IMG/VR virus record: IMGVR_UViG_3300045988_065836
Coordinates: 1-36,911 of that record
Source of the DNA: a virus
DNA: 36,911 nt
Strand: one strand, 5' to 3'
Shown here: positions 1 to 36,911 of the stretch, in pieces
How the letters are laid out: every line of letters begins with the position of its first letter
Position numbering within the stretch: position 1 is the first letter of the stretch
Notes under the pieces: model-generated
Seen by the model: the letters and a program-made list of their open reading frames with translations, nothing else
Databases searched by the model: none
What the model was told of the DNA's origin: nothing
Translations under genes and position numbers: made by a program

Positions 1-119
1 AGAAGGTACGAGGCCAAGAAGAAATTACTGGCCGCCCGGGGCCTGACCCCGGCGGCCTATGAAAAGGCACTGCGGGAGCTGACCCAAAAGCTAAAACTGT
101 AGGCCGTCACCCCGCCCCG
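1..119. repeat. Terminal direct repeat copy 1 (119 bp), identical to 36793..36911; signature of a circular or terminally redundant genome
   Basis: Bases 1-119 (agaaggtacgagg...gtcaccccgccccg) recur exactly at 36793-36911, which ends the window. Implied unit length is 36792 bp. Confidence 0.95.
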
Positions 120-4417: not shown

Positions 4418-4795
4418 ATGCGGAGCAAATACGGCAGCCGGAAACAAACGGTTTCCGGGATAACCTTTGACAGCCGCAGAGAGGCCAGACGGTTCCAGGA
4501 GCTTCGGCTTCTGGAACTGGCCGGGCAAATCTCTGGTTTGCGGTTGCAGGTAAAATACGTTCTGATTCCCACCCAGCGAGCACCGAGTTTTGAGGTCTAT
4601 AAGCGCGGCCCGAAAAAGGGCCGCAGGAAGCCCGGGGAAGTCCTGGAAAAGGAATGTTCCTACATTGCGGACTTTGTTTACACAAAGGGCGACGAAACCG
4701 TTGTGGAGGACGCAAAGGGCGTAAGAACAAAAGAATATATCATCAAGCGAAAGCTGATGCTGGAACGGTACGGAATCCGGATAAAGGAAGTGTAA
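4418..4795 (+). CDS. DUF1064-family protein (predicted PD-(D/E)xK-like nuclease/resolvase)
   Basis: KYGSRKQTVSGITFDSRREARRFQELRLLELAG...YIADFVY...VVEDAKG...YIIKRKL matches the DUF1064 pattern. Confidence 0.7.
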   Translation: MRSKYGSRKQTVSGITFDSRREARRFQELRLLELAGQISGLRLQVKYVLIPTQRAPSFEVYKRGPKKGRRKPGEVLEKECSYIADFVYTKGDETVVEDAKGVRTKEYIIKRKLMLERYGIRIKEV

Positions 4796-4797
4796 GC

Positions 4798-5523
4798 GTG
4801 AGAACACAATTTACATTTTACGAAAGCTTTTACAAGGCCATCAGCCGAATCAAGAAAAAGGCTGATCGTGCCGACGCTTACGATATCATATGCTCCTACG
4901 CGCTTTTTCAAGAAGAGCCTGATTTGGATTCTGTTTCGGACGCTGTAGCGATTGCTTTTGAGTTGCTTCGGCCTATTTTGGATAAAGCCAGAGAAAAGGC
5001 CGAAAACGGGAAAAACGGTGGAAGCAAACCGAAAGCAAACGCTAAGCAAAGCGAAAGCAAAACGGAAGCAAACGCTAAGGTAGAGCAAGCCGTAAGCAAG
5101 AAAGAGAAAGAGAAAGAGAAAGAGGTAGAGATAGAGGTAGAGAAAGAGATAGATAATATACATCCTACGGATGTTTGCGCGGAGCTGCCGAGCAGCCCCC
5201 CGCCTGCTGCGGTGCTGCCGCTGGTTGATGGCTCTGATTTCCCGATTGCCCAGGAAACGGTGGACGAGCTTTCGAGGCTTTACCCGGCTGTTGACGTAGA
5301 CCAACAGCTGCGGAATATGCGGGGCTGGCTTTTGGCAAACCCCAAGAATCGCAAAACCAAAGCCGGAATCATGCGGTTTGTAAACTCCTGGCTTTCCCGG
5401 GAGCAGAACCAGGCACGGCCGCAGAACCGGCAGCAATTCCAGGAAGGCACAAAGGCCAAGGAGCTTGATAAATTTTATGGCATGGCCGCAGATTGGGTCA
5501 GCAGCCGGGAGGTGACGGGATGA
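4798..5523 (+). CDS. Putative replisome organiser / replication initiator (DUF6291-like N-terminus, DnaD-like C-terminus)
   Basis: GTG 4798 follows AAGGAAG. The N-terminus is FTFYESFYKAISRI...ICSYALFQEEPDL. The C-terminus is LRNMRGWLLANPKNRKTKAGIMRFVNSWLSREQ. ATGA-coupled to the loader gene. Confidence 0.6.
   Translation: MRTQFTFYESFYKAISRIKKKADRADAYDIICSYALFQEEPDLDSVSDAVAIAFELLRPILDKAREKAENGKNGGSKPKANAKQSESKTEANAKVEQAVSKKEKEKEKEVEIEVEKEIDNIHPTDVCAELPSSPPPAAVLPLVDGSDFPIAQETVDELSRLYPAVDVDQQLRNMRGWLLANPKNRKTKAGIMRFVNSWLSREQNQARPQNRQQFQEGTKAKELDKFYGMAADWVSSREVTG
5101..5154. repeat. Nine tandem purine-rich hexamers (aaagag x4, gtagag, atagag, gtagag, aaagag, atagat)
   Basis: Read directly from the sequence. 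The repeat encodes KEKEKEKEVEIEVEKEID inside the initiator gene. A 13-nt direct repeat AGCAAACGCTAAG lies just upstream at 5034 and 5067. Confidence 0.85.
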
Positions 5524-6119
5524 ACGCACAGGAATTCGCGAATTTTGCCGCAGCGCTGCGGACGTACTACAGCCGGGAAAACATCCTGCCGAACAAGCAG
5601 GCAATGGAACTCTGGTTTCGGCAGCTGCAAGATATCCCCTACGAGGCAGCGGAGGCAATCCTGAGCAAGTGGGTTGCGACAAACAAATGGTCACCGTCCA
5701 TCGCTGATATCCGGGACGGTATGGCCGAAATCCAGAACGGCGGAGCTGCTGAGGACTGGGGCGAGGGGTGGAATAAGGCCATGGCAGCAATCCGCAAATA
5801 TGGCAGCTACAACGAGGCGGAAGCCCTGGATTCGTTGCCGCCCCTGACGCGGGAGACCGTGCGGCGGCTGGGCTATAAGAGCCTGTGTTGGAGCGAGAAT
5901 CAGATTGCAGATCGGGCGAATTTTCGGCAGGTGTATGAAATCCTGGAAAAACGGCAGGTAGAGGATCGCAAAATCCCGCTGCCGGTACGGGAGAAAATCG
6001 CCGGGCTTACGGCCAGATTTGCCAAGCCGCTGGAAGTGGAAACCCAGGCACTCCCTCGCCCTCTGGATGATGATGAACGGGCGGCCATCCGCCGCATGAT
6101 GGAAGGAAACACTGCATGA
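5520..6119 (+). CDS. G39P-like replicative helicase loader
   Basis: ATGA overlap with the upstream gene. ELWFRQLQDIPYEAAEAILSKWVATNKWSPSIADIRD resembles the SPP1 G39P loader family. Confidence 0.6.
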   Translation: MNAQEFANFAAALRTYYSRENILPNKQAMELWFRQLQDIPYEAAEAILSKWVATNKWSPSIADIRDGMAEIQNGGAAEDWGEGWNKAMAAIRKYGSYNEAEALDSLPPLTRETVRRLGYKSLCWSENQIADRANFRQVYEILEKRQVEDRKIPLPVREKIAGLTARFAKPLEVETQALPRPLDDDERAAIRRMMEGNTA

Positions 6120-9424: not shown

Positions 9425-9748
9425 ATGAGTGATTACATAAGCCGGGAGGCGGCACTGACGGAATTGCAAAACCCTGAGCTGTTTAACGTCTCACCAAGAT
9501 TTCTACAGATTCTCCGCGATCTTCCCGCCGCCGACGTGGAGCCGGTGCGGCATGGGAAATGGAATATCCGGGTTTCGGATGAACGTACCTTATGCCTGGA
9601 ATGCTCCGTGTGTGACCGCAAAGTTGATAACTTCAACCTGCACCGTCTGCTGATATTCGGAGAATACGGGGAGGCTTGCCGCAGATACCCTTATTGCCAT
9701 TGCGGCGCAAAAATGTGTTTGGAGGACAAAGAAAATGAGGCTGATTGA
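9425..9748 (+). CDS. Hypothetical Zn-ribbon protein
   Basis: ORF-track ORF containing DLPAADVEPVRHGKW followed by CLECSVC...CHCG. Confidence 0.55.
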   Translation: MSDYISREAALTELQNPELFNVSPRFLQILRDLPAADVEPVRHGKWNIRVSDERTLCLECSVCDRKVDNFNLHRLLIFGEYGEACRRYPYCHCGAKMCLEDKENEAD

Positions 9749-20779: not shown

Positions 20780-21121
20780 ATGAAATTTCTTTTCGATCTG
20801 CCCAATGAACAGCTGCTCCCCGCTACCTGCGACCTTGCGGATGCTGTGGAGCAGCTTGTAAAAGCAAGTGGAATCATGGAGTTCCGGAAGGCGCCGGAGG
20901 ACGGCGAAAGCAACGAGGCAGCGGCGAAGCGGAACGCAAAAAAGATGATTTTTAAGCTGTGCAAAGAGTACCCGAAGGAGACCGGCGCAGTGCTGGATAG
21001 GCTGTGGGTGCTGGAAAGCGACAGCGAAAAGGCACCGAATGCGCTGGTTACGGCTGGAATTTTGCTGGTAAGGAAAGACGTACTGGCTTTTTTTACATCT
21101 CTGGTACGTTTGGCGGAATGA
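20780..21121 (+). CDS. Tail assembly chaperone (G-like)
   Basis: 113-aa acidic protein between the major tail and tape measure genes. Contains a T7 slippery run near its 3' end. Confidence 0.75.
   Translation: MKFLFDLPNEQLLPATCDLADAVEQLVKASGIMEFRKAPEDGESNEAAAKRNAKKMIFKLCKEYPKETGAVLDRLWVLESDSEKAPNALVTAGILLVRKDVLAFFTSLVRLAE
21088..21094 (+). other. Slippery heptamer T_TTT_TTT for a programmed -1 frameshift
   Basis: The zero-frame codons are gcT TTT TTT aca. A -1 slip reads TTT TTT tac. Confidence 0.7.
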
Positions 21122-21435
21122 TGTATCGGCGGGCCGTTTTCTCGATCTCCCCGGCTTTTTACCCTATATTTTCGTTTCGGCAACTGCTGGATGCGGTAAT
21201 GGCCGAAATTCAGCGGGAAAGTGAAAGAAAATCCTGCTATGTATATTTTGCTGATGCGGTGCAAGCAATTAGCCAAAACGTGGCGAAAATAACCGGTGGA
21301 AACTACATGGGAAAACGGCTGATCGATATTTTGGAGCCGCCGACGGATGACGGAAAGACGGCAGATGAAATTATAGCCGAGATCAGAGGAGAACTTGCAA
21401 TGATTGGAGGTGCGGAAGATGGCCGGATTGCTTGA
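21094..21435 (+). CDS. Tail assembly chaperone -1 frameshift extension (GT-like product 20780..21094 joined to 21094..21435)
   Basis: The -1 frame is open from the slippery site to 21435 (YISGTFGGMMYRR...) and overlaps the tape measure start. Confidence 0.7.
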   Translation, partial: YISGTFGGMMYRRAVFSISPAFYPIFSFRQLLDAVMAEIQRESERKSCYVYFADAVQAISQNVAKITGGNYMGKRLIDILEPPTDDGKTADEIIAEIRGELAMIGGAEDGRIA

Positions 21436-27069: not shown

Positions 27070-27261
27070 ATGTACAAGTCTATGAAAATCTTAATCACAA
27101 GACATTTTTACAAGGCCGGCGAGATCGCCCAGAACAAGCTGGATGTGTTCTTCGCCTGCAATCGGCTGAGTGACGACGAATACACCGAGCTGACGGCCCT
27201 GGTGGAGACGGTCTACGGCGCGGATGCATCCGCAGAGGACACCCCCGAGGCCGAGGCGTAA
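27070..27261 (+). CDS. XkdX-like small protein
   Basis: GGAGGA RBS. 63 aa, with FFACNRLSDDEYTELTALV resembling XkdX-family proteins that precede fibre genes. Confidence 0.45.
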   Translation: MYKSMKILITRHFYKAGEIAQNKLDVFFACNRLSDDEYTELTALVETVYGADASAEDTPEAEA

Positions 27262-27279
27262 AGGAAAGGAGGCAGCGGC

Positions 27280-27690
27280 ATGGTGCCGAAGCAAGTTGTG
27301 CCGGACCGGCGCGGACTGGTAGAAATCGGAAAAATCAAGGAAAACCTGGTAACGGAGGTTGCCTTTGACTGCGCTGATCTGGGCGACGGAAGCGGGGCCT
27401 ATGCCGTTGTCTTTCAGCGGCCCAAGGACGCGGCCCCCTACCCCGTGGCGTTCCGGGCCGAGTGGCCGAGCATCGTCTGGGTGGTCCAGGCCGCCGACAC
27501 TGCCAAGCCCGGGACCGGCAAGGTGGAAATCCGGTGGTATGGTGACGGGCACCAGGTGGGCAAATCCAAGACCTACATGGTACGCATTACCGACGGGCTC
27601 CCCGACCCCACCGAGGCCCCGGAAGCCTGGGAGGGCTTTATGGGGGAGGTTGCCCGGAATGCCCAGGCGGCGCAAACCGCAGCGGGATAG
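27280..27690 (+). CDS. Tail fibre, N-terminal segment, ending at an in-frame TAG
   Basis: AAAGGAGG RBS. The Ig-like anchor region runs into an Ala/Gln-rich coil (ARNAQAAQTAAG) and stops at TAG 27688. Confidence 0.75.
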   Translation: MVPKQVVPDRRGLVEIGKIKENLVTEVAFDCADLGDGSGAYAVVFQRPKDAAPYPVAFRAEWPSIVWVVQAADTAKPGTGKVEIRWYGDGHQVGKSKTYMVRITDGLPDPTEAPEAWEGFMGEVARNAQAAQTAAG

Positions 27691-28722
27691 GCCAAGACCA
27701 ACGCAGACGGCGCGGCGGCATCCGCCGGGATTGCCCAGGATGCAGCCGCGGAGGCCGGAAAGTTGGCCGGGGCTGCCGGAGGGGCTGCCAACGCTGCGGC
27801 GAGTGCTGCATCCGCTGCATCCAGCGCCCAGGCCGGGGCAGAGACCGCCGCACAGAACGCCCGGGCGGCTGCGGAAGCCGCCGAGACGGCCAGGAGCGGC
27901 GCAGAGGCGGCGAAACTTGCCGCTGCGGAATCGGCCACGGGTGCGGCAGGAAGCGCGGAAGCAGCCGCACAGGCTGCCCAGAAGGGCGAAAACCTGTACA
28001 ATCAAGTAAAAGCCGATTTGGCCGCCGGGAAGCTGAAAGGTGAAAAGGGCGATAAGGGAGACCCCGGCAAGGACGCGCCGCAGATTGACGATAGCGTGGT
28101 ATCCGCCGAAAACCCGTGGAGCAGCCGCCATATTGTCGAGACGCTGTGCCCGCCCATTGCAGAAACCGGCAACCCCGTGACGTGCTACCCGGTAGCTGGG
28201 TATCCGCTGGGGGTGGTGGCATCGTTTGCGCCCACCCAGGCGGGAGAGGGCGAGCCGTACCCGGCGGGAGGAGGGCCGCAGATGCTGGATATATCCAGGT
28301 GCACGGCCACTGTGGGCAAGCCCTACGGCCTTACAATCACCATAGACGGAGACGTTATCAAGTGCAGCGGCGTGCCGTCTGCGGAGGTGGCAGAGAAAAA
28401 GGTCTACTCTTTCGCCGTGGCTTCGTCCGCCCAGGAAGAGCTGCGGGGAAAGGGGTACAAGGTCACGGCGTGGCCCATCAATGGCAAAGTGTCCAACGCC
28501 TGGGGCCTGCGGACGGCTGACGAGTCATCGTTGGCGATTGCCGCCGAGCTGTCACCTGGGGTAGACACGGATATACAGCTGCGGCTGATGGTATCCAAGG
28601 ATACGCCCACATCCTACGCTCCGTACGAAAACATCCGGCCGATCAGCGGGCGGGATAGCGTCAGCGTGGAGCGGTGCGGGGGGGCAGCTGCTAAGCTATT
28701 CGCAACCAATCGAAACGGATAG
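27691..28722 (+). CDS. Tail fibre, central segment (same frame as 27280..27690; possible restart at TTG 27763)
   Basis: The frame is open immediately after the TAG (AKTNADGAAASAGIAQDAAAEAGK...). Contains an Ala-rich coil and a GEKGDKGDPGKD collagen-like stretch. GGAGG lies 8 nt before TTG 27763. Confidence 0.7.
   Translation, partial: AKTNADGAAASAGIAQDAAAEAGKLAGAAGGAANAAASAASAASSAQAGAETAAQNARAAAEAAETARSGAEAAKLAAAESATGAAGSAEAAAQAAQKGENLYNQVKADLAAGKLKGEKGDKGDPGKDAPQIDDSVVSAENPWSSRHIVETLCPPIAETGNPVTCYPVAGYPLGVVASFAPTQAGEGEPYPAGGGPQMLDISRCTATVGKPYGLTITIDGDVIKCSGVPSAEVAEKKVYSFAVASSAQEELRGKGYKVTAWPINGKVSNAWGLRTADESSLAIAAELSPGVDTDIQLRLMVSKDTPTSYAPYENIRPISGRDSVSVERCGGAAAKLFATNRNG
28678..28684. repeat. 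Poly-G tract (G7) at the frame junction inside the tail fibre locus
   Basis: tgcGGGGGGGcagc, read directly. Loss of one G fuses 27691..28684 to 28685..29836. Confidence 0.95.
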
Positions 28723-29836
28723 CGACATTGTTGTAGGCCTTGAGTCTCCTGCGAGGACGCTGCTCTTGGCGAATTCCGTGCGAGGCCAGAAGCTCGAGGT
28801 ATCTTTCGAGCTGGAAACAGCAAACGTCGAATGGATGGATGCCGATGAAGTTTGGCGGCGCAGAATTGGATTTGAAGCGACTATCACAAAAGCATCGGAT
28901 GGACGGGTGAATTATAACTTTGCTTGCTGGATTGCATCGAACAGCGACGAGTTCAAGGCAACTGGAAAGTTCACGGTGAAAAAAGTGATTACCCTGTTTG
29001 ATGATAGGTATACAGCGTCAGGTGGATTTAAGTTCTATGTGCAAAACATGAAATCTGGGCGAGTAAAAGCAACCAATTTGTCCATCAAATTGATGCAAAA
29101 TACCGCCTACGCCCCCTACCGTGGCGATACGCTGGATTTGCAGCTGCCGTCTACCATCTACGGTGGCAGCTTGGATGCGGTGACGGGAGAGGGGGAACAT
29201 AAATGGGGACTGGTAACCTTTGACGGGAGCGAGGCGTGGACTATAGGCGGACTTGCTGCCGACAAAAGAGACTGGTATTACGTATCCCCGAAAATTGTCG
29301 ATGCAATCAACGAAATGCCGAAATCTGGGAACGAAATATGCAGCCATTACCCACATTATGATGTGTCGAACAACAATACAGGCAAGGGCTGCGCATTGGT
29401 GTGGGGGGCCTTCCGGGTGAGATGGGGTGATATAATCCCCGAGAACACAGATGCCTGGAAATCCTACCTCGCCGCCCAGGCCGCAGCCGGAACCCCGGTG
29501 CAAATTGCGTACAAGCTGGCAACCCCCACTCCATTCACGGCTACGGGGAACGGGCCCATCATGCCGCTGGAAGGCGAGACCAACACCATCATGACGGATG
29601 CTGATACCGTGACTGTCACCGGGCGGGCAGACCCGGCCCACGCCATTGCGGCGCTGCAAGCACAGTTGGCCGTTGCCACGCAGCAGCTTGCCGAGACGCA
29701 GGCGGCGATGGTGGACACCACGGCTATGGCGGTGGACTATATCTATCAACAGGATTTGGAGGATATTGGACTGGAGGAGGTTGACGACAGTGACAATCAA
29801 ACAGATACAGAGCCTGTTGACGTACCTGGGGTATAA
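28685..29836 (+). CDS. Tail fibre, C-terminal (receptor-binding?) segment in the +1 frame (possible restart at TTG 28766)
   Basis: The +1 frame is open from the G7 tract (QLLSYSQPIETDSDIVVGLESPARTLLLANSVRGQKLEVSFELE...) to TAA 29834-29836. Confidence 0.7.
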   Translation, partial: QLLSYSQPIETDSDIVVGLESPARTLLLANSVRGQKLEVSFELETANVEWMDADEVWRRRIGFEATITKASDGRVNYNFACWIASNSDEFKATGKFTVKKVITLFDDRYTASGGFKFYVQNMKSGRVKATNLSIKLMQNTAYAPYRGDTLDLQLPSTIYGGSLDAVTGEGEHKWGLVTFDGSEAWTIGGLAADKRDWYYVSPKIVDAINEMPKSGNEICSHYPHYDVSNNNTGKGCALVWGAFRVRWGDIIPENTDAWKSYLAAQAAAGTPVQIAYKLATPTPFTATGNGPIMPLEGETNTIMTDADTVTVTGRADPAHAIAALQAQLAVATQQLAETQAAMVDTTAMAVDYIYQQDLEDIGLEEVDDSDNQTDTEPVDVPGV

Positions 29837-30392
29837 TCCCGGGGCCGTGGACGGGGCAGACGGGGCCAACACCCAGGCGGCGGTAAAGCGTTTTCAGCAG
29901 GCCGAGGGGCTAGGCGTGGACGGGATCGCGGGCAAGGCGACCCAGGCGGCGCTCCTGGCGGCGGTTGCGGCTGGGCGGGTGTATGTGCCGCCTGGCGATA
30001 CTAGCGGGACTGGGGCCACGTCCGTGGGCGCTGGGGCGGACTGGTGGGGGGACATTAAATACTTTACCAGGGACGAGCCATACATTGCCTGCTCCTGCGG
30101 CAAGTGCGGCGGCTTCCCGGTGGAGCCTGCGGAAAAGCTGATGCGGCTTGCGGATGCTGTGCGGGAGACGGCGGGAAAGCCCATGATTCCAACCAGCACA
30201 GTGCGGTGCAAGACCCACAACGCAGAGGTTGGGGGAGTGTGGAACTCCCGGCACCTGCTGGGGCACGCTATGGATTTCCGCATTCCGGGGCTGTCGGCGG
30301 CTGAGGTGCTGGGCATCGTGCGGCAGCAGAAAAACGTGGTGTACTGCTACGCGATTGATGCGCAGCATGTGCATATGGATATTGGGAATTAG
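29790..30392 (+). CDS. Endolysin: PG_binding_1 domain plus M15-family zinc peptidase
   Basis: GTG 29790 follows GGAGGAGG. LGYNPGAVDGADGANTQAAVKRFQQAEGLGVDGIAG is the peptidoglycan-binding domain. CKTHNAEVGGVWNSRHLLGHAMDF...HVHMD is the M15 metal site. Confidence 0.85.
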   Translation: MTIKQIQSLLTYLGYNPGAVDGADGANTQAAVKRFQQAEGLGVDGIAGKATQAALLAAVAAGRVYVPPGDTSGTGATSVGAGADWWGDIKYFTRDEPYIACSCGKCGGFPVEPAEKLMRLADAVRETAGKPMIPTSTVRCKTHNAEVGGVWNSRHLLGHAMDFRIPGLSAAEVLGIVRQQKNVVYCYAIDAQHVHMDIGN

Positions 30393-30405
30393 GAGGAAGA
30401 AGAAA

Positions 30406-30705
30406 TTGAACGAATGGCTGAAAACAGCCGTTACCATTCTGGTAACGCTGCTGGGTTCGGCGGGCTTCTGGGGGTATCTGGAGGCCCGCCGGACGAAGAA
30501 AAGCGCAAATACCCGGCTGCTGGTGGGTATTGCCCACGACCGTATCGTTTATCTGGGGATGAAGTACATCGAACGTGGATACATCACCAAAGACGAATAT
30601 GAAAACCTCAACGACTACTTATACGAGCCATACGCCGCCGCTGGTGGAAATGGCTCTGCAAAAAGAGTTATGGATGAAGTACACAAAATACCGTTGCATA
30701 ATTAA
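30406..30705 (+). CDS. Membrane protein in the lysis cassette (TTG start)
   Basis: AGGAGG (30391-30396) lies 9 nt before TTG 30406. N-terminal TM segment TAVTILVTLLGSAGFWGYL. Confidence 0.5.
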   Translation: MNEWLKTAVTILVTLLGSAGFWGYLEARRTKKSANTRLLVGIAHDRIVYLGMKYIERGYITKDEYENLNDYLYEPYAAAGGNGSAKRVMDEVHKIPLHN

Positions 30706-30718
30706 GGAGGAAAACAAA

Positions 30719-30967
30719 ATGTACGAACTGAAAGACACTATCGAGGGCATGACAAGCGCTGACTATAAGGAGCGCTTTAAGGCCGAGTACCAGCAGGTAA
30801 AAATCCGGTACGACAAACTGGACGCAATGACCGTGAAGTACGAGGCAGGAACGTTGCCGTTCACCCCCAACTGCTCGCTCGATCTTCTGAAGGAGCAGAA
30901 GAAGTACATGGGGAATTACATTCGTTGCCTGAAAATCCGCGCTGAGATCGAGGGCATTACGCTTTAA
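30719..30967 (+). CDS. Hypothetical small protein in the lysis cassette
   Basis: AAGGAGG RBS. The 82-aa product begins MYELKDTIEGMTSADYKERFKAEYQQ. Confidence 0.6.
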   Translation: MYELKDTIEGMTSADYKERFKAEYQQVKIRYDKLDAMTVKYEAGTLPFTPNCSLDLLKEQKKYMGNYIRCLKIRAEIEGITL

Positions 30968-30980
30968 GGAGAAATAAAAA

Positions 30981-31238
30981 ATGATTAACTGGACTGTGCG
31001 TATCAAGAACAAGAACTTCTGGCTGGCGGTAATTCCCGCCGTACTGCTGCTGATTCAGGCCGTGGCCGCCGTGTTCGGATTCACCTTGGACCTGGGCGAC
31101 ATCGGCAATAAGCTGATTGCTGTGGTAAACGCGGTATTCGGCGTGCTGGTGGTGCTGGGCGTGGTCGTTGATCCTACCACGGCGGGCATCTCTGATAGCA
31201 AGCAGGCACGCGGGTATAATTGGCCGAAGGAGGATTGA
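30981..31238 (+). CDS. Holin (phage phi-LC3 family)
   Basis: MINWTVRIKNKNFWLAVIPAVLLLIQ...VVDPTTAGISDSKQARGY matches the phi-LC3 holin pattern. Confidence 0.82.
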   Translation: MINWTVRIKNKNFWLAVIPAVLLLIQAVAAVFGFTLDLGDIGNKLIAVVNAVFGVLVVLGVVVDPTTAGISDSKQARGYNWPKED

Positions 31239-31245
31239 CGGCTGA

Positions 31246-31482
31246 GTGGACAAATCCCGGATTAACCGGGTGATCGTGGAAGAATTTGACCGGCTCGCAT
31301 TTTTGACCGAGCTGGAAAAGGGAATCCTAATCACCCGGGCCGCCGGGAAAAGCCAATATTGGCAAACGCAGAAATACAATGTGTCCCAAGTCACAGTTAC
31401 CAGGGCCGTCCAACGACTGCAACGGAAATACGATGCAGTAAAGGGGTTTAGTGCCATACTCCCGGACGACCTGATTATTTGA
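31246..31482 (+). CDS. Sigma-70 region-4-like HTH protein
   Basis: GTG start follows GAAGGAGGA. LTELEKGILITRAAGKSQYWQTQKYNVSQVTVTRAVQRLQRKY. Confidence 0.5.
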   Translation: MDKSRINRVIVEEFDRLAFLTELEKGILITRAAGKSQYWQTQKYNVSQVTVTRAVQRLQRKYDAVKGFSAILPDDLII

Positions 31483-31506
31483 TCGCAAAATGACGATTTT
31501 TTAAGC

Positions 31507-31573: not shown

Positions 31574-31960
31574 ATGCCTATGGGCGAATTCCACAGTTTC
31601 AATCCAAACCCCCGGGCAGCAAAAGTCGGGGATTGCGCCGTCAGAGCAGTTGCAAAGGCCCTGGGTATCAGCTGGTACGAGGCATATACCCTACTTGCGG
31701 CTGAGGGCCTGGAACAATGCGATATGCCCAGCGCAAACAACGTATGGGGCGCGGTGCTTCGAAAAAACGGATTCCGGCGAGCGGCAATACCGGCAGAATG
31801 CCCGGACTGCTACACCGTGCGGGATTTTATCCGGGAATACCCAGCGGGAACATACGTTGTCGCCCTGAAAAACCACGTCGTAACTGTCTGCGACGGCGAA
31901 TTATACGATACCTGGAACTCAATGGACGAAAACCCAATCTATTTTTGGAGGCGTGAATGA
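31574..31960 (+). CDS. Putative papain-like cysteine peptidase fold protein
   Basis: Candidate catalytic residues are Cys in VGDCAVRAV, His in KNHVVTV and Asp in YDTWNS. The start may instead be 31580. Confidence 0.45.
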   Translation: MPMGEFHSFNPNPRAAKVGDCAVRAVAKALGISWYEAYTLLAAEGLEQCDMPSANNVWGAVLRKNGFRRAAIPAECPDCYTVRDFIREYPAGTYVVALKNHVVTVCDGELYDTWNSMDENPIYFWRRE

Positions 31961-32952
31961 TGGCAAACCCCTATATGCAGCCCAATTACCAAGGCGGCTA
32001 TTTCCAGCCGAACTATTTCAGCCCGCAAATGCAGCCGATGCAGCAGACGCAAATGCCGATGCAGGGACAGCAGGCCCCGCAGGACGACCGGAATGTGCTG
32101 CAATCGGTTATCCGTGGTCACAACGCAAAGCCCATGGTATTCCGCAGCTTCAACCCGCCTATGAGCATGAGCAATTGGGCAAACCAGTTTATCACAGAGC
32201 CAGATACCCAGGCTCTTACATTCCACACTGACTATACTATGATTCCGCCGGACTGGCTGGGAGATGCCTTTATTCTGGAAGCGGAGCGCCTAAAGGCCAC
32301 AAACCCCAAAGCATTCGAGCATGAGTATTTGGGCATTGCTACCGGCACAGGTGCGGAAGTATTCCCGGCACTGGAAGTGCGGGAGATCACCCCCGAAGAA
32401 ATCCAGAACATGGAATATTTCTTTTACGGCGTGGATTTCGGTTTTGCCGCTGATCCGGCGTGCTTCCTCCGGTGCAGCTATGACCGGAAGCATGAAACCA
32501 TTTACCTGCTGAACGAAATCTACAAGCGTGGCCTCTCGAACAGGCAACTTGCGGCAGAAATCAAGCCCCTTATTGATGGGGACAGCCCCGGCAGCGTCTA
32601 CAACGAGTTCTACCATGAATTTCTCCAAGGCAGCCCGCCACCCGTCTACTGCGACGCAGCAGAACCGAAAAGCATTGCCGACCTCCGGGACAGCGGAATC
32701 AAAAAAGCCCTGGCCTGCCACAAGGAGCCGGGATGTGTAGAATACCGGGTGAAGTGGTTGCAGCACCGGCGCATTGTCGTAGACCCAGCCAGAACGCCCA
32801 ACGCTGCAAGGGAACTTGCAAACTACGAGTACGAGAAGGATAAGGACGGCAACATTCTAAGCCGTCTACCAGACAAAGACAACCACAGTATTGACAGCCT
32901 GGCCTATGCCCTGGATAGGGAAATCTACCACCGCAAGGGCCAGAGCGCATAA
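31957..32952 (+). CDS. Second, N-terminally truncated terminase-large-subunit homologue (nuclease domain only) with a Q/P/Y-rich N-terminus
   Basis: FRSFNPP...HTDY...NPKAFEHEYLG, GVDFGFAADP, VYCDAAEPKSIADLR, DKDNHSIDSLAYAL parallel the C-terminal half of a PBSX TerL. There is no Walker A or B. The first 45 aa are MMANPYMQPNYQGGYFQPNYFSPQMQPMQQTQMPMQGQQAPQDD. Confidence 0.8.
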   Translation: MMANPYMQPNYQGGYFQPNYFSPQMQPMQQTQMPMQGQQAPQDDRNVLQSVIRGHNAKPMVFRSFNPPMSMSNWANQFITEPDTQALTFHTDYTMIPPDWLGDAFILEAERLKATNPKAFEHEYLGIATGTGAEVFPALEVREITPEEIQNMEYFFYGVDFGFAADPACFLRCSYDRKHETIYLLNEIYKRGLSNRQLAAEIKPLIDGDSPGSVYNEFYHEFLQGSPPPVYCDAAEPKSIADLRDSGIKKALACHKEPGCVEYRVKWLQHRRIVVDPARTPNAARELANYEYEKDKDGNILSRLPDKDNHSIDSLAYALDREIYHRKGQSA

Positions 32953-32968
32953 GGAGGAACTTATACAT

Positions 32969-34804: not shown

Positions 34805-35022
34805 CCCAATGTGAACGCATTCTCCGCCACCTCCAGGACGGTAACACACTGACCCAGGCCTAGGCCTTTTTGGAGTATGGAGTCGGCCGACTGTCTAGCC
34901 GAATATGTGATCTCCGGCGGGCGGGCTACCCTATCAAGGGCGAGTTCGTCACCCAGAAAAACAGATACGGGGAGCCTTGTACATTTGTTCGGTATTCGCT
35001 GGATGAAACCAAGGGGGCTTGA
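34801..35022 (+). pseudogene. HTH_39-like winged-helix gene interrupted by an in-frame TAG at 34861
   Basis: MTQCERILRHLQDGNTLTQA*AFLEYGVGRLSSRICDLRRAGYPIKGEFVTQKNRYGEPCTFVRYSL. ATGA-coupled at both ends. The stop lies inside the conserved motif. Confidence 0.6.
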
Positions 35023-35024
35023 TT

Positions 35025-35510
35025 ATGGCCGCTCTGAGAGATAAACATCCATCCTGGTTCAAGCTGAAAACCGAGCGGCGGCAGCTTATCAAAGAGTTGC
35101 CACCGGAAACGGCAGTCACCGTTCTTCTAGCCTGTCTGGATTATTTGGAAATCGGAAGTTTTCCTGATTCCATGCATCCGATTGAGAGAATCGCCGCTTC
35201 TGCTTTTCTTCCTGACTTGGAAGAAGCCTGGGCAAAGTATACCAAACGGGTATCAAATGGCTCAAAGGGTGGTGCCCCCAAGGGCAATAAAAACGCCCAG
35301 AAAACAAAACAACCATACGGTTGCATTCGCCCCCATATGGGGCCATTCGGGGCAGAAGTAGAAGAAGACCCCCTAAAGGGGGATTCTTCTACTAACTGGG
35401 GTGTAGATAATAGGGACAGGGAACCGCCCCTTTGTGGGGGCGGCCCCCCTACCCGGTTCTACTTTGACGATTCCGGAAACCTTGTTGACAGGGGGGATGA
35501 TTGCTTATGA
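35025..35510 (+). CDS. Hypothetical protein upstream of DnaB (second DUF6291-like N-terminus; possible replication accessory protein)
   Basis: SWFKLKTERRQLIKELPPETAVTVLLACLDYLEIGSFPD resembles the N-terminus of 4798..5523. ATGA-coupled to dnaB. Confidence 0.55.
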   Translation: MAALRDKHPSWFKLKTERRQLIKELPPETAVTVLLACLDYLEIGSFPDSMHPIERIAASAFLPDLEEAWAKYTKRVSNGSKGGAPKGNKNAQKTKQPYGCIRPHMGPFGAEVEEDPLKGDSSTNWGVDNRDREPPLCGGGPPTRFYFDDSGNLVDRGDDCL

Positions 35511-36763
35511 ACCCAGAGCAATACCTTTGTGGGGCTATCCTGATTTCTGGCGAAGCAGTCATGAAAGCCATTCGGGGCATTGTCACACCTGATTGTTTCC
35601 AGCTGGAAGCCTATCGAGCTATCTATGTGGCGGGCCTGTCCCTGCTGGATGCCGGGGAACCTATTGACCCGGTTTCCATCAAGGCCCAGGCAAAGCGGCA
35701 GGGCGTGGAGCTGTCAAACAAACTGCTTTCCGAGCTGATGGAAGTCGTTCCGTCCGCTGCCTACTGTGTCGAATATGCCCACCGTGTGGCGGAGGATGCC
35801 CGCACACGGGCTGTAAAGGAATTAGCTGAGCGAATACAGAGCGATACCGTTTCCAGCGCTGACGAGCTTTTAGCAACTTTGCAGCGAGAGACCGAGGCAA
35901 TACGGGGCAGCAGCTACCAGCGAGGGCTATTGACCCCCAATGATACCCTGCACCGGTTCATGGACTATGTCGTCCGAGCTGGCGAAAAGCGGGACAATTT
36001 CATCTCCACCGGATTTCCAAGGCTGGACGATATTCTAGGTGGTGGATTCATCCGGGGAGGGCTGTACATACTGGGGGCGAGGCCCGCCGTGGGCAAGTCC
36101 ACTTTCGGTATTAACCTAGCTGACAACATAGCAGGCAACGTCCTTTTTGTCTCCCTGGAAATGTCCGTGGAGCAGATCACGGCGAAACGGATATCCCGCC
36201 GTATCGGCTGTTCTTCCGCCCGCTTGCTGTCCGGTCAGCTGTCAGATCAAGCGTGGGAGAAGGTGGCCATGGCTTCCAGTGACATTTCACAACGGGGGCT
36301 ATATCTCAATAACCGCTATGATTTAACCGTGCAGCAAATCGCCTTGCTGGCCCAGGCCGTGCCAGAACTGCGGGCCGTGATTGTGGACTACCTGGGCCTT
36401 ATCCAGCCTGCCACTCGGAGCGCATCAACCTATGAAAATATCTCCCAAATCAGCCGGGAGTTGAAGCGCATGGCCTTGTCTCTGAATGTGCCAGTTATAT
36501 GCCTGTGTCAGCTGTCCAGGCAGGTTGAGAGCCGCCAGAACAAGCGCCCTATGCTGTCAGACCTGCGGGACAGTGGGGCCATCGAGCAAGATGCGGACGG
36601 GGTGCTTTTCCTCTATCGGGATGACTATTATGCCGGAGGCCCTGCCGATGGGCAGCCGTCAGCCGTGGATTTGAGCGTGGCAAAGAACCGGCACGGGCAG
36701 ACCGGCGAGACAAGTTTCAACCTGTGGCTCAAGTACAGCTACTTTAAGGAGGCGGCGGGATGA
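35507..36763 (+). CDS. dnaB: DnaB-family replicative DNA helicase (G40P-like)
   Basis: N-terminal domain (LCGAILISGEAV...YRAIYVAG...PIDPVSI), Walker A GARPAVGKST, IVDYLGLIQ, QLSRQVE, DSGAIEQDAD. Confidence 0.93.
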   Translation: MNPEQYLCGAILISGEAVMKAIRGIVTPDCFQLEAYRAIYVAGLSLLDAGEPIDPVSIKAQAKRQGVELSNKLLSELMEVVPSAAYCVEYAHRVAEDARTRAVKELAERIQSDTVSSADELLATLQRETEAIRGSSYQRGLLTPNDTLHRFMDYVVRAGEKRDNFISTGFPRLDDILGGGFIRGGLYILGARPAVGKSTFGINLADNIAGNVLFVSLEMSVEQITAKRISRRIGCSSARLLSGQLSDQAWEKVAMASSDISQRGLYLNNRYDLTVQQIALLAQAVPELRAVIVDYLGLIQPATRSASTYENISQISRELKRMALSLNVPVICLCQLSRQVESRQNKRPMLSDLRDSGAIEQDADGVLFLYRDDYYAGGPADGQPSAVDLSVAKNRHGQTGETSFNLWLKYSYFKEAAG

Positions 36764-36894
36764 AACGAAAGTCGAAGCGCCGAAACAGCTGGAGAAGGTA
36801 CGAGGCCAAGAAGAAATTACTGGCCGCCCGGGGCCTGACCCCGGCGGCCTATGAAAAGGCACTGCGGGAGCTGACCCAAAAGCTAAAACTGTAG
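36760..36894 (+). CDS. 44-aa basic protein coupled to dnaB (its 3' part is duplicated at 1..102)
   Basis: ATGA overlap at 36760-36763. Product is MKRKSKRRNSWRRYEAKKKLLAARGLTPAAYEKALRELTQKLKL, followed by the terminator. Confidence 0.5.
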   Translation: MKRKSKRRNSWRRYEAKKKLLAARGLTPAAYEKALRELTQKLKL

Positions 36895-36911
36895 GCCGTC
36901 ACCCCGCCCCG
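36793..36911. repeat. Terminal direct repeat copy 2 (119 bp)
   Basis: Exact copy of 1-119. It contains the 3' end of the small ORF 36760..36894 and the start of the terminator hairpin. Confidence 0.95.

Follow-up and report, generated by a model that had tools for sequence, protein, structure and literature searches.

A tail-fibre gene of an uncultured gut siphophage, probably inactivated by several mutations that include a G7 tract at a module boundary

The tail-fibre gene described here belongs to a virus represented by a stretch of DNA of 36,911 nucleotides, which was analysed as a whole and is called the window below. In this phage lineage the gene has probably been inactivated by several independent mutations, and a run of seven G residues, which a preliminary description had singled out from the sequence, is one of them. 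Most likely the gene is an ordinary knock-out and contains no on/off switch. This reading is directly supported by three lesions in the gene, by an intact allele, by the lack of conservation of the tract among homologous fibres and by the intact state of the remaining virion genes. The fibre gene, probably pseudogenized by a homopolymer indel together with nonsense mutations, adds one more example to a type of event that is already known. The coordinates of the gene, its pieces and the sites under discussion are given in Table 1.

Table 1. Positions in the window of the tail-fibre gene, its fragments and its lesions
Feature	Coordinates	Strand	Basis
Tail-fibre gene, 851 codons when intact; here a probable pseudogene in three pieces	27280..29836	+	Repaired translation identical to P0125 except at codon 137
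N-terminal fragment, 136 aa: predicted beta-sandwich anchor domain and start of Ala-rich helix, ending at the amber codon	27280..27690	+	ORF, AF2 model
In-frame amber codon TAG, codon 137; GAG (Glu) in intact alleles, G>T	27688..27690	+	Allele comparison
Central fragment, frame 1: Ala-rich coiled coil, short collagen-like stretch, predicted jelly-roll domain 2, linker	27691..28722	+	ORF, AF2 model
Codon 315, TCG (Ser) in the window; TAG in L003	28222..28224	+	C>A at 28223
G7 tract: codons Gly467 and Gly468 plus one inserted G; G6 in intact alleles	28678..28684	+	Allele comparison
Distal fragment, frame 2: variable jelly-roll cassette (predicted domain 3), second linker, domain 4, C-terminal helix, acidic tail	28685..29836	+	Homologue alignment, AF2 model
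GAGGA, 8 nt, TTG: chance SD-like site and start codon within coding sequence	28753..28768	+	Identity with intact alleles, site counts

The tract stands in the context ...GAG CGG TGC GGG GGG G CAG CTG... and lies at a +1 frame junction, as the preliminary description had stated. Frame 1 corresponds to an open reading frame (ORF) at 27763–28722, whose TTG at 27763 is merely a mechanical ORF start; it reads ...SVSVERCGG into the tract, continues for 12 further codons (AAAKLFATNRNG) and ends at TAG (28720–28722). The +1 frame (frame 2) is open from 28589 to a TAA at 29834–29836 and contains an ORF of 356 aa that starts at TTG 28766, with a GAGGA motif (28753–28757) 8 nt upstream of it. All of these features agree with the first account of the sequence. 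Dinucleotide-preserving shuffles of both strands predict 11.0 ± 4.2 runs of at least seven G or C residues, and the window has one, the G7 tract itself; thus the mere presence of such a tract is unremarkable and no statistical oddity. Its position at the frame junction is causal, not coincidental.

Deletion of one G in silico fuses frames 1 and 2. It had been claimed that the loss of one G would give a single fibre of about 850 aa, and it turns out that the frames do join, with 851 codons from ATG 27280, but that the frame from this ATG is also broken by a TAG at codon 137 (27688–27690), which had been missed. Since this TAG stays in frame, the loss of one G would not restore the fibre. The stop codon sits in the middle of an Ala-rich coiled coil, and the coiled-coil sequence resumes unchanged beyond it.

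The exact proteins of the window were looked up in a collection of 15 billion proteins, and all three fibre pieces cluster there with full-length fibres. One of these, P0125 (851 aa), equals the repaired fibre of the window except that it has Glu at the TAG position. It is encoded at two loci (L005 and L006) and, in part, at a third (L007), all from other samples; the intact allele occurs in ERR636383, ERR636384 and ERZ27250519. The P0125 gene, as read in L005 and L006, differs from that of the window at three sites in 2556 nt, two of which are disruptive: G in the intact allele versus T in the window at 27688, G6 versus G7, and a synonymous C/T difference at 29164. The loci L001 and L002, which encode the closely related protein P0001 (848 aa), also have G6 and GAG. 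Thus an otherwise near-identical intact allele exists, and the gene has more than one disabling lesion: TAG at codon 137, one additional G at codon 469 and, in the sister scaffold L003, TAG at codon 315. The 319-aa ORF of the window was not indexed as a called gene, and scans for the exact tract context with a variable G count gave no match in the viral, genome or JGI metagenome collections.

A search with a junction-spanning query of 586 aa retrieved 6470 homologues. Among the best 120 of these 6470, nearly all are single proteins of 650–930 aa, and most cover 99–100% of the query. Compared with these orthologues, which span the junction, the pieces in the window are parts of one gene whose intact state has G6; the possibility, raised earlier, that homologues have two separate genes here is contradicted, because they carry one. 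Many of the homologous fibres contain collagen repeats (PF01391). The fibre pieces themselves have a weak match to a PHROG tail-fibre family (E = 8e-4) and none in Pfam, and collagen was the only match of the fibre in a sequence search of the PDB. In the GenBank phage collection there was no close relative of the fibre at the DNA or protein level, and the similarity reached at most 38–40% identity over parts of the protein, all in unannotated faecal contigs. A protein-guided scan of species-representative genomes found no relative, and the same kind of scan in the viral collection found only four loci, all distant.

The closest full-length homologue was modelled as a monomer with AF2. The model is poor overall (pLDDT 60, pTM 0.29), and only its domain boundaries were therefore used. 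It comprises an N-terminal beta domain (residues 1–105), a long helix (115–245), a jelly-roll-like domain (332–437), a low-confidence linker (438–465; ...YAPYENIRPISGRDSVSVERCGG) and a second domain (466–603), which begins immediately behind the two Gly codons of the tract; beyond residue 603 the model continues with a further linker, a third domain and a helix at the C-terminus. Foldseek searches with the model gave weak matches to the carbohydrate-binding modules CBM22, CBM4 and CBM16. In an alignment of 78 homologues the linker is conserved (consensus ...ENIRPISGRDAVxVERCGENLL) and is followed by a hypervariable cassette, which places the tract at a true module boundary. The preliminary description was thus right that the tract marks the start of the distal part of the fibre, as both the alignment and the model indicate. 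Cassettes are swapped, absent, or duplicated or added at linkers in individual homologues, and conserved linkers recur between the jelly-roll cassettes (...YxPYENIRPISGR..VERCGENLL... and ...AYTPYxGDTLxLQLPxTxYGG...; alignment A1). The N-terminal anchors and the type of shaft, Ala-rich or collagen, vary in the family as well (P0026, P0042, P0066, P0029, P0034, P0082 and others). The position of the gene in the tail module, the fibrous shaft and the distal predicted binding domains (in the model, a helix and three jelly-roll-like domains) are those of a tail fibre or receptor-binding protein. We infer that it acts as an accessory adhesin, one that recognizes a carbohydrate receptor and that the phage can lose.

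The codons at the tract are not conserved. Among 113 proteins that bear the linker motif, the residues after ...VER are CGEN in 59, CGVN in 28 and CGG(Q/N) in about eight. Where the DNA was read (L009), CGEN, the common state, is encoded by TGC GGG GAG, from which a single A>G change leads to G6. About 15 other distinct loci of the family turned up in a scan for linkers that contain six or more G residues in a row, and each has exactly G6 in frame; among the family loci scanned, G7 is confined to the lineage of the window. We also considered the tract as a recombination breakpoint; the near-identical blocks end elsewhere (at about 28000 and 29750 for L001, and at about 27250 and 31500 for L005). 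Cassette swaps in more distant homologues do, however, begin right after ...ERCG(E/G)(N/Q)LL.

The combination of G7 and TAG at codon 137 recurs in the window, in the ENA scaffold L003 and in the Logan contigs L004 and L012, that is, in three assemblies whose read sets are possibly not independent, as they may represent one read set or one person (ZEEV15-1, SAMEA3664526; ERR1136729). The ENA scaffold (37,036 nt) agrees with the window over the final 18,146 nt of the latter except for one mismatch, a C>A change at window position 28223 (scaffold position 9458) that converts Ser315 (TCG) into a second TAG. Of the Logan contigs of run ERR1136729, L012 has the first TAG and L004 has G7. The contigs end at 28215 and start at 28224, so that the assembly breaks within 8 nt of 28223, as is expected if both alleles occur in this run; the site is probably polymorphic within the sample. 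L004 crosses the G tract unbroken, with no assembly bubble there. Because contigs cross both 27688 and the tract without a break, TAG137 and G7 appear to be fixed and to lie on the dominant haplotype. Both nonsense changes (27688 and 28223) are G:C>T:A transversions.

The window is an uncultured SPP1-like siphophage of the human gut. It encodes a small terminase subunit (TerS, PF03592), a large one (TerL), an SPP1-type portal protein, a Mu-F-like protein, the major capsid protein, the tail tube and the tape-measure protein, followed in the tail and lysis modules by Dit (PF22768), Tal (PF14594), two small baseplate-type proteins, the fibre, an M15 endolysin with a peptidoglycan-binding domain, and holins. 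The fibre gene thus lies downstream of the tape-measure, Dit and Tal genes and upstream of the endolysin gene. TerL is about 50% identical to that of temperate siphophages of Lactobacillus and Oenococcus, and the same gene layout is found in six relatives of the backbone from other samples. Ten virion proteins (TerL, portal, Mu-F-like protein, capsid, tube, tape measure, Dit, Tal and the next two) match their cluster relatives in length, which indicates that the damage is confined to the fibre; decay of the whole phage was rejected on the same ground. Directly upstream of the tape-measure gene, which is the usual site of the programmed frameshift of tail chaperones, two small ORFs overlap in different frames (20780–21435; 113 aa, and 105/143 aa in the other frame).

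An exact direct repeat of 119 nt (window positions 1–119 and 36793–36911) is the signature of a circular path in an assembly with k = 119, in which the contig closes into a circle of 36,792 bp. The ENA scaffold runs past this repeat into different sequence, which encodes a helix-turn-helix N-terminus like that of a small terminase subunit, and a second, related element may therefore share the repeat. Two DUF6291 genes are present (4654–6119 and 35019–36763), one followed by a match to a G39P-like helicase loader and the other by a DnaB-type helicase, so that replication functions appear to occupy two places on the circle. The subset of window ORFs scanned against Pfam or PHROGs contains no integrase.

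The fibre and lysis cassette form a block (27250–31500) that has six differences from L005, and the divergence of its flanks is at least several per cent and reaches about 19% in a 250-nt bin. L005 and L006 are prophages adjoining an integrase or RNase Y. From the comparison of these sequences, the block looks like a recently exchanged piece of a mosaic, shared with L005, L006 and L007. Downstream of the lysis genes, at 31957–32952, an ORF of 331 aa contains the distal part of a Terminase_3 ATPase (profile positions 113–200 of 201) and a Terminase_3C nuclease domain behind an N-terminus rich in Gln, Pro and Met. This second large terminase, truncated at its N-terminus, occupies the place where L005, L155 and L157 carry other genes and an integrase or recombinase. 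Just after it, at 32954–32958, the window and L004 differ at three clustered positions (G>A, G>A and A>G) in a GGAGG-like ribosome-binding sequence; these are the only other differences between the two.

Several other explanations of the tract were weighed. The preliminary description had noted that such a run is a classic site of homopolymer error, in which case the true genome would have G6 and the frameshift would exist only in the contig. In favour of an error of sequencing or assembly are the nature of the site, the existence of otherwise identical intact alleles and the chance that all G7 assemblies derive from a single read set. Such an error is improbable in our view, because G7 is shared by three assemblies (the window, whose ends overlap by 119 nt, the ENA scaffold and the Logan contigs), because the Logan assembly is continuous over the tract yet broken next to the polymorphic site, and because stops of the substitution type, which also disrupt the gene, are beyond the reach of homopolymer error. 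Slipped-strand phase variation, the other suggestion made at the outset, would have G6 and G7 interconvert and so switch the distal receptor-binding modules, as in phages of Campylobacter. A tract in a gene of the receptor-binding type, exactly at the boundary before the variable cassette, together with the G6 and G7 states of the same allele in public data and a phage precedent (Sorensen et al. 2021, cited in PMC10877375), is what such a switch would look like, and the homopolymer does lie in the reading frame of the fibre ORF, at the low end of length. A switch of this kind is quite improbable, however: the upstream amber codon and the second one in L003 would make the off state irreversible by tract length alone, most homologues have GGGGAG or other codons at the site, so that the tract is not maintained, and the scan of loci with at least G6 yielded no recurrent on/off length variants in independent lineages or samples. 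All copies with G7 come from one lineage and hence represent one event, and the contig that crosses the tract has no bubble. Six or seven G residues are, moreover, at or below the usual length threshold of contingency loci, and the tracts of Campylobacter phages are longer.

The gene might also be functionally split, with the distal segment of 356 aa made from TTG 28766 and still serving the virion. The SD-like motif and the start codon are suitably spaced for this, but the intact alleles of L005 and L007 have exactly these bases as ordinary coding sequence. Strict combinations of an SD sequence and a start codon are common, with eight in the fibre gene and 81 on the + strand of the window, and the internal GAGGA–TTG start was accordingly set aside as a chance site. 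As the fragment would also be devoid of the N-terminal anchor and shaft, and as the homologues listed have no conserved two-gene arrangement here, independent initiation, which had been proposed as an outcome that would overturn the single-fibre view, is very improbable. Least credible of all is programmed recoding, in which +1/−2 ribosomal frameshifting or transcriptional slippage on the G run, combined with read-through of the amber codon, would yield a full-length fibre. A homopolymer does stand where the frames meet, and no stop interrupts the +1 frame over the tract; nevertheless, the orthologues need no frameshift, as they encode the fibre in a single frame with G6, and the second frame has not been conserved as a unit of its own, so that programmed frameshifting and transcriptional slippage were both rejected. 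Amber suppression or reassignment was rejected as well: TAG is an ordinary stop that ends at least three other genes of the window, that of the endolysin included, no tRNA gene, and hence no suppressor tRNA, was found in the window, and the two TAG codons replace different residues (Glu and Ser), which does not fit reassignment to one amino acid.

The observations are explained most simply by a slippage insertion in a fortuitous G6 run of a gene that was disabled more than once. An A>G change would have turned the usual linker codons of the family, TGC GGG GAG (Cys-Gly-Glu), into TGC GGG GGG, leaving a minority of fibres with a G6 run by chance. In the lineage of the window, replication slippage would then have added one G. 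The resulting shift at codon 469 would deprive the fibre of its two distal jelly-roll modules and of the C-terminal helix. In a separate event, Glu137 would have become an amber stop through G>T, and Ser315 likewise, in part of the same population, through C>A. The products would be at most an anchor stub of 136 aa and possibly unanchored fragments, and no functional fibre would be made.

Two observations count against inactivation in this plain form. Two of the three substitutions known in the fibre gene are nonsense, a class to which 3.6% of the possible substitutions belong (7.4% of G>T/C>A changes), an excess that simple neutral decay does not predict (binomial P about 0.004–0.016, calculated post hoc). 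The circular assembly, furthermore, points to an element that replicates, rather than to an integrated prophage in decay. It is conceivable, although we regard it as doubtful, that the loss is adaptive and that selection has repeatedly knocked out an accessory carbohydrate-binding fibre in an otherwise intact gut siphophage. By analogy, and just as tentatively, the chance G6 run would then be the most mutable route to a knock-out, and the gene a natural counterpart of the loss of side fibres by lambda in structured, high-density habitats. Hints in this direction are the proportion of nonsense substitutions, the fact that the sole difference from the sister contig over 18 kb is a new stop in the fibre gene, the ten intact virion genes, and at least two other lineages of the family with independently broken fibres. 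In L155 (1880–4512) and L156 (1202–3834), from two samples, a related fibre gene has a −1 frameshift at ...EPYPAGGGPQLL..., outside any long run; in L157 (2271–4971) and L158, a 5′ deletion in a related fibre gene removes the anchor domain together with an upstream gene of 95 aa.

Whether the loss was adaptive or not, inactivation by several mutations bears on annotation: the ORFs at 27280–29836 should be read as one disrupted fibre gene; neither a trio of genes nor a frameshift signal nor a switch is the right label. The case also illustrates that one A>G substitution is enough to place a fragile homopolymer where two modules of a receptor-binding protein meet. It raises the question of whether the gut phages of a dense and structured habitat discard their adhesive accessory fibres in the way that lambda does under laboratory conditions. 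Intact (P0125) and broken alleles are both public, so that they can be compared.

The fibre resembles the modular, collagen-like or CBM-type fibres of siphophages of Firmicutes in its location between the baseplate genes and the lysis cassette, and in its make-up of an N-terminal anchor, an Ala-rich coiled coil, collagen repeats and jelly-roll modules separated by linkers. It differs from the known members of that group in that the searches of the phage collection and the PDB found no close cultured phage or solved structure. With bacterial contingency loci, exemplified by surface genes of Campylobacter and Neisseria in the accounts cited in PMC10877375 (van der Woude 2011; Bayliss 2012), the gene shares the same elementary mutation, a slipped-strand gain of one G in a coding homopolymer; unlike in them, no evidence emerged of reversibility, of a tract kept by selection or of on/off mixtures. 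The hypermutable polyG tracts of Campylobacter phages (Sorensen et al. 2021, Cell Rep 35:109214, cited in PMC10877375) are similar in that a poly-G run in a host-recognition gene of a phage decides by its length whether the full protein is made. The tract in the window is, in contrast, short (6/7) and unconserved, and its length variant occurs in one lineage that also has irreversible stops.

The closest parallel in kind is the side-fibre gene stf of lambda, to which we found no sequence relationship. In the laboratory strain lambda PaPa a frameshift split stf into orf401 and orf314 (Hendrix & Duda 1992, Science 258:1145, as cited in PMC2762979). In a biofilm-like setting, 19 of 21 selected isolates of lambda carried mutations in stf, and 15 of these were frameshifts; with one exception, the insertions and deletions fell in short homonucleotide runs (Gallet, Shao & Wang 2009, PMC2762979). 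Loss of stf is tolerated, and is favoured in a structured habitat (PMC2762979). The gene in the window differs from stf in its one or two extra amber codons, and the host of its phage is an uncultured gut bacterium of the Gram-positive type. Furthermore, the loss in lambda was selected in an experiment, whereas in the phage of the window it may have been selected or tolerated. In both phages, however, the outcome is the same: an indel of one base divides a long siphophage fibre gene into neighbouring ORFs, and the other virion genes are intact.
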